Positions 2,334 through 59,336 of a stretch of DNA of 64,000 nt are shown one piece after another. The DNA is taken from NCBI RefSeq assembly GCF_017348835.2, contig NZ_CP071375.1; one strand, written 5' to 3'. This DNA is from Escherichia coli (GTDB taxonomy: Bacteria; Pseudomonadota; Gammaproteobacteria; Enterobacterales; Enterobacteriaceae). The number at the start of each line of letters is the position of its first letter. Within the stretch, counting starts at the first letter, position 1. The notes beneath the pieces are model-generated. The model had not been told where the DNA came from. It was given only the letters and a program-made list of their open reading frames with translations, and ran no database searches. The translations under genes and the position numbers were made by a program.

Positions 2334-3956
<1,623 letters not shown>

Positions 3957-55099: not shown

Positions 55100-56146
55100 T
55101 TAACGTCCTGCTTTCAGCTTCTGATAATACTCTTCATAAATGCTGCTGGCTGCGCCAACGTCATTCTGCCATTCGCCATTTTTAATGGTTTCAGCATCCG
55201 GGTAGAGCGTCTTATCGTTCGCCACTTCTGGACTTAACAGCTTACGCGCCGCAAGGTTTGGCGTTGGATAACCGATAGTTTCAGCAACCTGTTTTGCCAC
55301 ATCCGGGCGCAGCAGGAAGTTGATCAATTTCAGCGCGCCTTCTTTGTTTTTGGCATTTGCCGGGATCGCCAGGCTGTCCATCCAGAATATGCCGCCTTCT
55401 TTCGGCCACACCACGTCAATAGGCGTACCCGCCTGGCGTGCAACGAAAGCAGAACCGTTCCAGATCATGCCGAGGTTAACTTCGCCTTCCATGTACGGGT
55501 TAGCCGGGTTATCGGAGTTAAACGCTGCGACGTTTGGCATCAGTTTTTTCAGCTCGTTATATGCAGCTTCAATCTCTTTCGGATCGGTGGTGTTACCGGA
55601 GTAGCCCAGCTTACGTAGCGCCATCTGGAACACTTCACGGGCATCGTCGGTCAGCAGCAGGCTGCCTTTGTACTCAGGCTTCCACAAATCGGCCCAGCTG
55701 GTGACAGATTTCGGATCCACCGCATCACCGTTAACGCCAATCGCCGTCGCACCCCAGATATACGGAATGGAGTAATCGTTATTCGGGTCAAACGGCTTAT
55801 TGAGCATGTCTGGATCGAGATTGCTGAAGTTCGTTAACTTCGACTTGTCGATCTTCTGGATCATCCCTTCTTTACGCATTTTATCGACGTAATAGGTTGA
55901 AGGAACCACCAGGTCATAGGCACCGTCTTTGTACGTTTTCAGCTTGGCATACATGGTTTCGTTCGACTCGTAAGTCGAATAGATAACCTTAATACCGGTT
56001 TCTTTGGTGAACTGTTCAAGCAGTCCTGGCGGCACGTACTCGGTCCAGTTGTAGAAATACAGCGTGTTGTTGTCATCGGCGTGAGCGGCGCTCATGCCCA
56101 GTGCCAGAGCACCCGCCGCGAGCAGGTGGCGTGACCATTTTTTCAT
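55100..56146 (-). CDS. potD: spermidine/putrescine ABC transporter periplasmic binding protein
   Basis: 348-aa ORF with signal peptide, recognised as PotD. Confidence 0.94.
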   Translation of the reverse strand: MKKWSRHLLAAGALALGMSAAHADDNNTLYFYNWTEYVPPGLLEQFTKETGIKVIYSTYESNETMYAKLKTYKDGAYDLVVPSTYYVDKMRKEGMIQKIDKSKLTNFSNLDPDMLNKPFDPNNDYSIPYIWGATAIGVNGDAVDPKSVTSWADLWKPEYKGSLLLTDDAREVFQMALRKLGYSGNTTDPKEIEAAYNELKKLMPNVAAFNSDNPANPYMEGEVNLGMIWNGSAFVARQAGTPIDVVWPKEGGIFWMDSLAIPANAKNKEGALKLINFLLRPDVAKQVAETIGYPTPNLAARKLLSPEVANDKTLYPDAETIKNGEWQNDVGAASSIYEEYYQKLKAGR

Positions 56147-56937
56147 TTAACGTCCCCTGTGTTACCTTTCGTTTTATCACGAGCAATAAGCTGGCTGGCA
56201 ATAACCATCACCAGCGACAGCACCAGTAATATGGTTGCCAGCGCGTTAACTTCCGGCGATACGCCGACTTTGACCATCGAATAAATTTTTAACGGCAGAA
56301 TTTCATAACTCGGCCCAGTGACGAACGAAGAAACAACCACATCGTCCATCGACAGGGTAAAGCTTAACACCCAGCCCGCCGCCACCGCTGGCATTGCCAG
56401 TGGCAGAATGATTTTTCGCAGAATGGTAAATTCGCTGGCACCGAGATCTTTCGCCGCTTCCAGCATTCGCACGTCAAAACCTTTCAGGCGCGAATACACC
56501 GTCACCACCACAAATGGCAGGCAGAAGGTGATATGCGAGAACAGCAGCGACCAGAAGCCAAGCTGAATACCCAGCAGCATAAACAGCACCAGCAGCGAAA
56601 TTGCCATCACGATATCTGGTGACATCATTACCACAAACAGCATTCCGCTAACGAACGGCTTACCACGAAAGCGATAACGGTACAGTGCAACTGCCGTCAG
56701 TGAACCGATAAGCGTAGCAAACGTCGCTGAAAACACCGCCATCGTCAATGAATGCTGAGCTGCCTGCAACAGACTGTCGTTGTTCATCAGCAGGCTATAC
56801 CATTTAGTGGTAAAACCCTGCCAGTTGATGCCAAAGCGCGAGCTGTTGAAAGAGTTCACAATCAAAATAATGATTGGAATATACAGGTACGCGTAGATAG
56901 CGGTCATAAAACCGCCGCGAAGCAGTCGACCGATCAT
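56143..56937 (-). CDS. potC: spermidine/putrescine ABC transporter permease
   Basis: 264-aa ORF recognised as PotC; 4-nt overlap with potD. Confidence 0.94.
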   Translation of the reverse strand: MIGRLLRGGFMTAIYAYLYIPIIILIVNSFNSSRFGINWQGFTTKWYSLLMNNDSLLQAAQHSLTMAVFSATFATLIGSLTAVALYRYRFRGKPFVSGMLFVVMMSPDIVMAISLLVLFMLLGIQLGFWSLLFSHITFCLPFVVVTVYSRLKGFDVRMLEAAKDLGASEFTILRKIILPLAMPAVAAGWVLSFTLSMDDVVVSSFVTGPSYEILPLKIYSMVKVGVSPEVNALATILLVLSLVMVIASQLIARDKTKGNTGDVK

Positions 56938-56969
56938 TCGAGTTCCACCTTTTTATTCATAAGGCGGGA
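56934..56969 (-). pseudogene. potB: 3'-terminal remnant of potB, cut off by the prophage junction
   Basis: Minus-strand frame ending in TGA that overlaps the potC ATG (ATGA) encodes ...SRLMNKKVELE; this matches my recollection of the PotB C-terminus, and the frame is open for only 37 codons (to 57047) with no membrane-permease body upstream. Confidence 0.45.
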
Positions 56970-57245
56970 CACTTTCAGGTTTTTGAATTTATTCAATTTT
57001 TTCCTTTCTCCAAAATCTCTCCAAAACTTTTCCCCAAAACAGGACCACGCATTTTACAGCATTTTTATACATGGGTGAGCTTACTAGGACAGAAAAGTAT
57101 TCCAGTTTGTTTACCCATATCGCTTTCCGAATGAGATTTTTGATGTGATTTCTTCGTGTTGAAAAACCACATAATGTGGTATTAGAATTAGCTATCAAGA
57201 TTCACTTTGAATCCGTTTTGAATCCCATTGAACTCAGGAGTGACT

Positions 57246-57449
57246 ATGAAGCGTAAAAGTGTGGCTTTGTTACAAGCCATTGGCTCGGTTATAGCCCTGA
57301 GCCCGACGGTCGTTTCAGCAAATGGCATGCCAGCGAATCCAGTTTCCGCTTTGCGTCAGGATGCTGCGGCTATCAGAGGCGATTTCCAAAAAGCAATGGT
57401 ATCCGTTAACGTTGAAAAGCTGAACAATGCCAGATCAAAAAGAAAGTGA
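57246..57449 (+). CDS. small secreted protein, unknown function (prophage cargo)
   Basis: 67 aa, MKRKSVALLQAIGSVIALSPTVVSA is a signal peptide with a likely cleavage site after VSA; AGGAG Shine-Dalgarno 5 nt upstream; the listed ORF starts at an in-frame TTG at 57228. Confidence 0.55.
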   Translation: MKRKSVALLQAIGSVIALSPTVVSANGMPANPVSALRQDAAAIRGDFQKAMVSVNVEKLNNARSKRK

Positions 57450-57534
57450 GAACACCAAACTCACTTGTGAATAACAAAAGGATAATGAACTGGTTTCTCG
57501 AGTAATCGAAAATCCAGAGGTCTTAAACAGGGTT

Positions 57535-57894
57535 TTGGATAGTCCGCAGGTGCGGGCTATTGTTTGCCAGCATTTTCAGGGGCCTGTTCCGCCACCTTCA
57601 ATGCTTAAAAAGTATGATCAACTGGTGCCTGGGCTTGCAAATCGACTTGTTGAGTTGACCGAAAAAGAGCAGGCTCATCGCCATAAAACAGTGGCTGATA
57701 GCATTGATATTGCCAGAGATGGTCAAACAAAGGCTTTTTGGTTGGCAATATTGATCATCTTAGCTGCCACTGTCTTTGGCGTCATGGGGGAGACAGTTCT
57801 TGCCGGAACTCTCGTTTCAATAGATCTTGTTGCATTGGTTACGGCATTTATTGTTGGAAAACATTATTCTAAGCAGGAACCTGATCAAGATTAG
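57535..57894 (+). CDS. DUF2335-like two-transmembrane-helix membrane protein (prophage cargo)
   Basis: N-terminal PVPPPSMLKKYDQLVPGLANRLVELTEKEQAHRH followed by two hydrophobic helices; start uncertain (TTG 57535 or ATG 57601), no strong Shine-Dalgarno. Confidence 0.5.
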   Translation: MDSPQVRAIVCQHFQGPVPPPSMLKKYDQLVPGLANRLVELTEKEQAHRHKTVADSIDIARDGQTKAFWLAILIILAATVFGVMGETVLAGTLVSIDLVALVTAFIVGKHYSKQEPDQD

Positions 57895-57902
57895 TCTCCG
57901 AA

Positions 57903-57925
57903 CCCCGGTTGATGCCGGGGTTTTT
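57903..57925 (+). terminator. rho-independent terminator after the cargo cassette
   Basis: CCCCGG-TTGATG-CCGGGG followed by TTTTT, 9 nt after the stop codon. Confidence 0.8.
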
Positions 57926-57970
57926 ACACTAGCAAAGCAATATCAACATTTTTCAGCTGCATTTATTTCG

Positions 57971-59089
57971 TCAAACAACCAATTTAACCCATTCCTGACC
58001 ACGAGTATCGTTATAACGATCGGTGGTTGCTTGGACTTTATGTCCCAGTAATGTTTTTGTATCAATACCCTGCGCGCGGTACAGTCGTTCTGACAGGGAG
58101 CGTTGTTCATGAAATGTTGGCGGAGTTTTTCCTGCTGGTGGAGTTATCCCAGCCAGATCCCGTGCTTTGGCAAAGTAGTCGCTCAGGTTGTCTTTACTCA
58201 TCGGCTTTGGTTGTTTCTGGTGCCGACTATGGATTAGATATGGACTTAATATTCTGTCTCGGCACCCATCAATAACTTCTTTTAACGTTATCCCAATGGC
58301 ATCACAGCGTAGTGTAAGCGGTAACGCCAGACGCATTCCGGTTTTTCCCTGGGTGATATGCAAGTGTTCGTTCCACACATCTGAAAAACGCATGTGGCAA
58401 ATGTCATCACGGCGCTGACCAGTAACAATCGCAAGAAGCATTGCGTTACGGATAAAGTGTTTTTCAGGCGTTGCGTTGTAAATTTTTTGCCAGTCTTCCA
58501 GGGTGAGCCTGGCTCTAGTTACTTTAGGGATCGGTTTACGGGTAGCCTCCGGAGGATTCCATCCAGGAGGAACTTCCCCTGCATGCTGTGCTTCTTTATA
58601 AATATCAACCCATAATCCACGATTTACTCTCGCTGTGCTGACCATGTCTTTATCCAGCCACTCATCCAGTATTAATGCAAAGTCTCTTACTTCCAGTTCT
58701 TTCAATGGGTGGTTTCCCAGACGGGAAACCAGGTATGCAGCCATTCGGGCTTTTTCTTTGTGAGTTGTAGCTGCAATATCTCCATTTTTCAGTCGCGTGT
58801 CCTGTATTTTCAGATATCGATCAACCCATGCCTTTAATCTGATACCCCGACGCTTTGTTGCTGACGGACTTTCATCAATTTTGCGCATGAAATATTCAGC
58901 CTCTGCTGCAGCTATTCGCTGATTGGCTGTGGAAGCGATTTTTTCTGCCTTACCTTTGTCTGTTCCGAGCCCGTGAAATTTTCCAGTCACAGGGTTTTTA
59001 TACTGGTAGTAAACTCTGCCAGTTCTGCGATCAAATTTTTCGTAAAGTCCGGCTACGTCAGTGCTGTTTTTTCGTGGCCTCGGTGACAT
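57971..59089 (-). CDS. int: phage integrase (tyrosine recombinase, lambda Int family)
   Basis: 372 aa; lambda-Int-like C-terminal catalytic region (VTGQRRDDICHMRFSDV, PPTFHEQRSLSERLY, LLGHK, conserved Tyr in TDRYNDTRGQEW). Confidence 0.9.
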   Translation of the reverse strand: MSPRPRKNSTDVAGLYEKFDRRTGRVYYQYKNPVTGKFHGLGTDKGKAEKIASTANQRIAAAEAEYFMRKIDESPSATKRRGIRLKAWVDRYLKIQDTRLKNGDIAATTHKEKARMAAYLVSRLGNHPLKELEVRDFALILDEWLDKDMVSTARVNRGLWVDIYKEAQHAGEVPPGWNPPEATRKPIPKVTRARLTLEDWQKIYNATPEKHFIRNAMLLAIVTGQRRDDICHMRFSDVWNEHLHITQGKTGMRLALPLTLRCDAIGITLKEVIDGCRDRILSPYLIHSRHQKQPKPMSKDNLSDYFAKARDLAGITPPAGKTPPTFHEQRSLSERLYRAQGIDTKTLLGHKVQATTDRYNDTRGQEWVKLVV

Positions 59090-59336
59090 GAGTTAAAATC
59101 TCCTTCAGTGCATCATCATCGCCAGTATGAATTTCCGGCGCAATTCCTGTTTCACCAGGTCCAACAAATACTGCTCGGCGATCTATCAGCCAACGCCCAC
59201 GAATTTTTTGTGGTCTTGGAACGATGTATCCTAGTTTTCCGTATTTCACCAGGGTAGTGTTTGTTATTGGGAGACTGAACCGTTTTGGCTTCCACTCATC
59301 GAGCGTTATCAGGTACTGTTCGCTCATGGCTATCAC
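59058..59336 (-). CDS. xis: excisionase (Xis)
   Basis: 92 aa; YLITLDEW...GRWLIDRRAV resembles lambda Xis (MYLTLQEW...); 32-nt overlap with the int start as in lambda; start could be Met1 or Met4. Confidence 0.75.
   Translation of the reverse strand: MIAMSEQYLITLDEWKPKRFSLPITNTTLVKYGKLGYIVPRPQKIRGRWLIDRRAVFVGPGETGIAPEIHTGDDDALKEILTHVTEATKKQH

Follow-up and report, generated by a model that had tools for sequence, protein, structure and literature searches.

The DNA analysed here (the window) is a stretch of 64,000 nucleotides from the Escherichia coli contig NZ_CP071375.1, and the element in question is a small two-gene cassette that lies in it between an attachment (att) arm of a lambdoid prophage and the prophage integrase gene (int). 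The cassette encodes a 67-residue protein (gene 1) and, overlapping it, a predicted inner-membrane protein of the DUF2335 family (gene 2). A first-pass annotation had singled out the region as a phage moron carrying a secreted small protein and a DUF2335-like membrane protein; morons are the places where temperate phages keep genes altering host biology. Taken alone the locus is an ordinary, already annotated hypothetical pair, and what is new is the family-wide pairing of DUF2335 with a partner that had not been recorded. The features of the cassette, in window coordinates, are as follows.

57067-57156: left part of the 900-bp insert, missing in the O157 prophage and not common to the Salmonella cassette
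57159-57188, plus strand: candidate sigma-70 promoter, TTGAAA-18 nt-TAGAAT, with 10 of 12 consensus matches
57167-57179: palindrome CCACATAATGTGG, which extends to a perfect 15-mer, ACCACATAATGTGGT (57166-57180), in the promoter spacer
57246-57449, plus strand: gene 1, 67 codons (WP_000824186.1), with an AGGAG Shine-Dalgarno sequence at 57236-57240
57427-57894, plus strand: gene 2, DUF2335 predicted inner-membrane protein, 155 codons when intact (WP_001113310.1), overlapping gene 1 by 23 nt
57472-57474, plus strand: premature stop TAA in gene 2 (E16*), with T at 57472 where most carriers have G
57535-57894, plus strand: residual open reading frame (ORF) of 119 codons starting at TTG (WP_001432301.1 in strain 2013C-4974)
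57900-57928, plus strand: intrinsic terminator found by folding, a 10-bp GC-rich stem followed by a U run

Comparison of viral loci identifies gene 1 as a conserved partner of DUF2335, and the two as a widespread phage-borne pair. A degenerate DNA pattern for GPLPPP..L..Y....P recovered 120 viral-contig loci, all of them true DUF2335 genes, which were thinned at 85% identity to 52 non-redundant loci and searched with an iterated profile of the gene 1 family. A same-strand partner homologue was present immediately upstream of DUF2335 in 49 of the 52 (E<1e-3), while the control ORFs, drawn from the opposite strand and the downstream flanks and forming a set 3.4 times larger, gave no partner match at all (best E 0.4-1.3). 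Four further independent loci, found by other routes, also carry the partner. The arrangement is tight: in 43 of the 49 loci the predicted DUF2335 start comes before the partner's reading frame has ended, and a gap of 0-3 nt separates the two genes in five more. On one IMG/VR contig (L108) the two are naturally fused in frame, a stretch of about 33 nt standing in place of the partner stop codon. Pairwise distances within the partner and DUF2335 families show a weak, significant correlation (Mantel rho 0.18, p 0.001).

The partner proteins are helical, 60-90 residues long, and share two motifs, GS(V/I)(L/M)D(I/L)xP towards the N-terminus and LRxDxxx(I/V)GxDFxKA, which is predicted to be helical. 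They have gone largely unnoticed in the databases: a Pfam search with 46 partner sequences returned no family, the family is spread over at least five PHROGs, all of unknown function, and a profile search of a large protein database met the name 'hypothetical' throughout, apart from one cluster misassigned as WalK. DUF2335 itself is large, with 7272 clusters at 50% identity (E<=1e-3), almost exclusively stand-alone proteins of 110-240 residues from Proteobacteria, Firmicutes, Actinobacteria, Bacteroidota, Fusobacteria, Spirochaetes and other phyla. Matches in AFDB50 at E<=0.01 were again DUF2335 or unnamed membrane or uncharacterised proteins from many phyla.

The assignment of gene 2 to DUF2335, which the first-pass annotation had offered for checking against the profile, is secure. 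The intact form matches the Pfam family (PF10097) over residues 55-89 with an E-value of 1.8e-12, and PHROG 3996 ('membrane protein', filed under 'moron') with 6.5e-43; neither family carries a function, and neither records the upstream partner. Among 145 homologues, nine residues (G52, P53, P55, P57, Y63, P68, R73, E79 and R85) are each kept in at least 90%, and they fall in an N-domain motif that reads GP(L/V)PPP..L..Y....PG..R.....E..Q.HR. An AlphaFold model of the intact protein, with a mean predicted local distance difference test score (pLDDT) of 85.7, runs from two poorly conserved helices through the invariant GP.P.P segment and a short helix to a 50-residue helix, a turn and a membrane helix, the two C-terminal helices spanning residues 70-119 and 123-149. 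The model thus agrees with the two transmembrane (TM) helices that had been predicted. In it the 50-residue helix passes from the cytosol into TM1, the periplasmic turn is 2-4 residues long, and TM2 ends in a short basic tail; from the flanking basic residues we infer an N-in/C-in topology. CorA/Mrs2 and MCU-type channels resemble DUF2335 in architecture only.

The window copy of gene 2 is not intact. Gene 2 had been described as a protein of roughly 100-120 residues, and an ORF of 119 codons is indeed present; the gene proper has 155 codons, however, and a nonsense mutation had been overlooked. Over 851 bp the window differs from E. coli O103:H2 12009 at one position only, the T/G at 57472 that gives TAA in place of GAA at codon 16, and in that strain RefSeq annotates a 155-residue DUF2335 protein whose ATG corresponds to window position 57427, within the last part of gene 1. 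When a 71-nt probe with 57472 at its centre was compared with 205 carrier genomes, 22 (~11%) matched perfectly and the other 183 (~89%) imperfectly; E16* is a minority variant, probably clonal. The residual TTG ORF keeps the conserved core complete, and natural DUF2335 proteins of 113-118 residues align from query residues 47-48 onwards. It has no convincing ribosome-binding site, and its translational coupling to gene 1 is lost. Judged from these features, the residual ORF is probably inactive in the window strain, or the system strongly under-expressed. The window copy is accordingly unsuited to experiments.

That the cassette is a moron, and self-contained, is borne out by its distribution. 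Lambdoid prophages had been said to keep little between att and int, and this held on comparison: in O157:H7 TW14359 the same att arm and int lie 33 bp apart, whereas the gap in the window is 900 bp (57067-57966). The module of att arm, int and excisionase gene (xis) is present in 1625 of 5426 complete E. coli genomes and the cassette in 210 (~4%), including O103, O121 and other Shiga-toxin-producing lineages. About 210 of the ~1625 genomes with the module thus have the cassette as well. In the module rows sampled the span is ~867 bp larger in cassette carriers than in uninterrupted genomes, and the sample suggests that the majority of the 1625 are uninterrupted. Because the gap is 33 bp in one prophage and 900 bp in the other, and because the module is far commoner than the cassette, the region is to be read as an insertion. 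Its edges can be placed with a Salmonella copy (L011), to which window positions 57157-57906 are homologous at 76% identity while the flanks are unrelated; the homology starts 2 nt before the -35 box and ends inside the terminator. Salmonella copies lie at a prophage end, 3' of genes for tail-fibre assembly, or have the nin/Q region on one side and an M78-peptidase gene on the other. Since the unit is conserved from -35 box to terminator in Salmonella prophages at other positions, and shows variable presence, sharp boundaries and different positions in different phages, comparison of the genomes marks it as a true moron. It is very probably an autonomous unit of ~770 bp (promoter-like element, two overlapping genes, intrinsic terminator) that went into the gap between the attL arm and the int 3' end of a lambdoid prophage residing at the potB/potC overlap.

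Further afield the pair turns up in a range of phage settings. A megablast search of a phage collection with the cassette found no match, and tblastn against the same collection found 17 phage records. In a Pantoea relative the pair lies directly 3' of a cI-type repressor gene and before N, which is the rex position of lambda; a second repressor-adjacent pair was found (L083), and three relatives in all are near a cI repressor. Staphylococcus phage IME-SA4 has a 71-residue gene overlapping its DUF2335 gene, between the endolysin gene and a convergent int, and a second locus (L035) likewise has the pair between lysin and convergent int. In Klebsiella phage RAH1 (L009, ~3280-3953) the pair belongs to the tail-gene region and immediately precedes the tape-measure gene, with the small partner ORF unannotated, and in another locus (L139, 1129-1825) it lies between the tail assembly chaperone and tape-measure genes. 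E. coli phage ZX5 shows the same overlapping two-gene layout. One relative adjoins a Doc-like toxin and a 3'-phosphoadenosine 5'-phosphosulfate (PAPS) reductase moron, and HicAB modules are also among the neighbours.

Across the E. coli and Salmonella copies the ratio of nonsynonymous to synonymous substitution rates (dN/dS) ranges over 0.19-0.42 in gene 1 and 0.07-0.20 in gene 2, values that place both genes under purifying selection. Loss does occur: in E. coli A8 (L003, 6147-6966) gene 1 is kept and the DUF2335 gene is deleted, with an ORF6N-domain gene beside the remnant. An ORF6N gene is likewise a neighbour of the Salmonella cassette (L012, L013 5514-6101), and these neighbours suggest either a recurrent association or a common insertion hotspot.

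The signals around the two genes are of uneven quality. The terminator had been called strong and it is: the hairpin folds at -20.5 kcal/mol (z -4.5), none of 200 shuffles is as stable, and the Salmonella copy has an analogous hairpin at the equivalent position. A terminator scan scored 0 sites, as the stem uses part of the T run; by folding the hairpin is clear. The Shine-Dalgarno sequence, five bases 5' of the gene 1 start, is also kept in the copies of relatives. The proposed promoter is less certain. Its TTGAAA stands at 57159 as described, both hexamers are shared by the E. coli copies and that of Salmonella L011, and the -10 region TATTAGAAT occurs in every aligned copy, but such sites are no more frequent than chance allows (2, against 2.2 +/- 1.7 in shuffles). 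The 13-bp palindrome in the spacer is likewise present, and longer than was claimed, yet perfect palindromes are not enriched (3, against 1.1 +/- 1.2, with 12% of shuffles reaching 3). Its suggested role as an operator finds no support and was dropped, as the arms shrink to 5+5 bp in ETEC1717 and 4+4 bp in Salmonella and a search of the window for a second copy found none. A second perfect palindrome, GATTCA-CTT-TGAATC (57199-57213), lies just 3' of the -10 box, and TTTGAATCC recurs ~12 nt beyond it (57199-57225); the Salmonella copy lacks part of this leader. An Rfam scan of 56800-58100 returned nothing near threshold.

What the pair does cannot be read from homology to a known system, as searches of Pfam, NCBIfam, PADLOC, PHROGs and the PDB and a fold search linked neither protein to a family of known function. 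Exclusion and abortive infection had been put forward as hypotheses in the first-pass annotation, and both are plausible. Arguing from position and architecture, we tentatively favour a two-component membrane system that is expressed in the lysogen and acts against other phages by excluding them or aborting their infection, the small protein serving to control the membrane protein. In the lysogen its own promoter would drive the pair, uncoupled from the lytic programme, and the amounts of the two proteins would be linked. The small protein would bind and control the cytosolic stalk of the membrane protein. Superinfection would then make the membrane protein oligomerise in the inner membrane or switch state there, and the outcome would be either exclusion of the second phage or an aborted infection. 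We favour such an anti-phage system of the lysogen because the unit is autonomous and has its own terminator, because its orientation is independent of the lytic genes, because relatives occupy cI-, int- and gp15-type sites, the classic ones for lysogenic conversion and exclusion, and have morons as neighbours, and because loss alleles recur. Those alleles (E16* in ~11% of carriers and the A8 deletion) fit a dispensable, possibly costly accessory function.

The working would be RexA/RexB-like, in unrelated proteins. Both systems consist of adjacent genes for a soluble and a small polytopic inner-membrane protein, in temperate phages and placed for expression in the lysogen, and the Pantoea and L083 pairs lie directly 3' of a cI-type repressor gene just as rexAB does. 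They differ in that there is no sequence similarity (E>0.1), in that RexB has four TM segments and no large cytosolic domain, and in size, RexA having 279 residues against 67 for gene 1. A broader form of the proposal, that DUF2335 and its partner are an unrecognised cross-phylum temperate-phage system absent from defence catalogues, which protects lysogens by exclusion or abortive infection through a regulated two-TM effector in the membrane, is possible but in our view rather doubtful.

A number of observations weigh against an anti-phage role. NCBIfam returned nothing for either protein. In PADLOC-DB v2 gene 1 had no match, and the only match for the pair was to PD-T4-6 (E 0.002, 15.6 bits, 49 residues), in which residues 44-92 of the intact DUF2335 protein (window 57556-57702) align with model positions 219-265; the score is weak, the target is a Ser/Thr kinase defence protein, and we set the match aside as probably due to chance. 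Searches of the PDB sequences with both family profiles likewise found nothing. The known exclusion proteins gave no sign of homology: RexA and RexB scored E 0.15-0.87 with negative bit scores against the family profiles, lambda SieB gave E 0.11, HK97 gp15 gave E 0.056 with a negative score, and Sie2009 gave E 0.8 against the DUF2335 profile. Expression in the lysogen is itself suggested by orientation and by a promoter match no better than chance. The fused partner-linker-DUF2335 AlphaFold model, built from a paired alignment, reached a pLDDT of 68 and a predicted template-modelling score (pTM) of 0.46, with the partner N-helix at ~50. The DUF2335 gene is interrupted in the window, at least one relative has chromosomal surroundings that are not those of a phage, and the sole published DUF2335 phenotype is the weaker plant maceration of a Dickeya zeae deletion mutant, seen at screen level (PMC8809351).

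A narrower alternative, which we consider unlikely, is superinfection exclusion at the step of DNA entry, the DUF2335 protein blocking injection with the aid of its partner and without cell death, in the manner of the injection blockers HK97 gp15, T4 Imm and P22 SieA. The comparison with gp15 is the closest, as each is a self-contained moron that brings its own terminator and a gene for a small inner-membrane protein, and the chaperone/tape-measure gap occupied by the pair in L139 and RAH1 is the very site of the gp15 moron; the predicted inner-membrane location and the positions and orientation that suggest lysogenic expression are also as such a role would have them. In the lactococcal Sie2009-type systems, too, small membrane proteins are encoded beside int in temperate phages, and Sie2009 is expressed from the prophage. 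Neither protein is related in sequence to the pair, however. HK97 gp15 is a single protein of 62 residues with one hydrophobic segment, unrelated to either pair protein, and Sie2009 combines a single N-terminal TM segment with an extracellular domain, while in the DUF2335 model the periplasm-exposed part is the 2-4-residue turn and the most conserved part is cytosolic. The known single-protein injection blockers, moreover, are not known to have a conserved cytosolic partner.

A toxin-antitoxin-like addiction pair, in which a toxic membrane protein is neutralised by the small protein and the chief effect is to stabilise the prophage or mobile element, not to ward off phages, would account for several of the same observations. 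The overlap of a small upstream gene with a larger one in 43 of the 49 loci is the classic antitoxin-toxin layout, the losses fall on the membrane gene (E16*, and the A8 deletion in which gene 1 is kept), Doc and HicAB modules are among the neighbouring morons, and the pair also occurs outside phages. Against it, Pfam and NCBIfam connect neither protein with a known toxin or antitoxin family, and the partner, two predicted helices in the fused model, has no recognisable DNA-binding fold by which it might autoregulate. We regard this account as distinctly unlikely.

The reading of gene 1 as a secreted protein, central to the first-pass annotation, fares little better. The 67-residue ORF is where it was said to be, and its N-terminus has the look of a cleavable signal peptide: MKRK precedes a run of 21 residues without charge, with a best 19-residue hydropathy of 1.79, then comes a VSA|NG site, and a simple n-, h- and c-region heuristic scored it as signal-peptide or membrane-anchor-like. 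In its fullest form the idea is that gene 1 is exported by Sec, cleaved after VSA (residue 25), and joins the membrane protein in the periplasm or envelope to modify the envelope or mask receptors. The same segment, however, aligns with the conserved family motif GS(V/I)(L/M)D(I/L)xP, and of the 49 homologues only 10 pass the heuristic, the segments of the other 39 being charged (with Asp and others) or too short. The conserved C-terminal helix motif should share one compartment in all homologues, and the DUF2335 surface available to a partner is cytosolic in the model, with 2-4 residues in the periplasm. Because the N-terminal motif is mostly without signal-peptide character and the conserved DUF2335 surface is cytosolic, secretion of gene 1 is doubtful; from the alignment we judge it unlikely, and the envelope-modifying pair built on it improbable.

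A role in the phage's own cycle, such as lysis timing, holin regulation or a membrane anchor for some phage process, has in its favour that pairs are found in or near late or lysis operons and on the same strand (after the holin-endolysin genes in IME-SA4, among tail genes in RAH1 and L139, and with terminase or portal neighbours elsewhere). Class II holins, moreover, have a two-TM topology with both ends inside. But the pair is missing from most near-identical prophages and is thus dispensable, the window pair is convergent with int, outside the lytic operons and equipped with its own promoter-like element and terminator, three relatives place it near a cI repressor, and no holin family in Pfam or PHROGs matches. 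We consider such a role very improbable. That the ORFs are not functional genes at all, and represent a host gene pair or a decayed remnant, is scarcely credible: the premature stop makes the second of these true in part for the window strain, and 2013C-4974 has a frameshifted int, but the K-12 potB-potC junction is uninterrupted and most sampled genomes lack the insert, which excludes a conserved host pair, while dN/dS values of 0.07-0.42 in both genes, retention of the pair across phyla and an intact allele in ~89% of carriers largely refute it for the family.

The pairing changes what can be asked of DUF2335. More than 7000 clusters without a known function prove to have, nearly always, a small partner that is translationally coupled and recorded in no database, and the two move together as a single unit in temperate phages that range from Proteobacteria to Firmicutes and Actinobacteria. 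An anonymous domain thereby becomes a defined two-gene system open to direct cloning and testing. Should it act in defence or exclusion, a widespread family would be added to the known repertoire; if not, the cassette would be an ordinary hypothetical moron. A caution for annotation should be added here. The phospholipase family of the Tle1 effectors is DUF2235. The entry 'DUF2335 (phospholipase)' in two papers on type VI secretion system effectors (10.1101/2023.07.16.549128; PMC6267618) is most likely a misprint for it, and could mislead.

The prophage that carries the cassette, and the host genes beside it, are laid out in the window as follows.

55100-56937, minus strand: potD and potC
56938-56959: host/phage junction, the 22 nt upstream of the potC ATG that match the uninterrupted K-12 potB-potC sequence
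56960-57066: phage att arm, 107 bp, common to potC-site prophages without the cassette
57005-57039: three tandem 11-nt direct repeats in the att arm, TTTCTCCAAAA, TCTCTCCAAAA and TTTCCCCAAAA
57971-59089, minus strand: integrase with an Arm DNA-binding domain, convergent with the cassette
59058-59327, minus strand: excisionase

Homology to K-12 potB-potC stops at 56959, and from there on the DNA is prophage; the 22 nt at 56938-56959, the 3' end of potB, are probably the att core. The att arm up to 57066 is 96% identical to that of the O157:H7 TW14359 prophage, and int 95% identical, and the repeats at 57005-57039 are candidate arm-type Int binding sites. Beyond the excisionase gene an 823-residue exonuclease is also encoded on the minus strand. 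The prophage sits exactly at the potB/potC overlap and so splits potC-potD from potA-potB and its promoter, while the last potB codons are duplicated in the core, with the result that both ORFs remain intact. Strain 2013C-4974 carries a cassette 100% identical to that of the window together with a frameshifted integrase; since the window integrase ORF is intact, the window represents a different carrier of the E16* allele.

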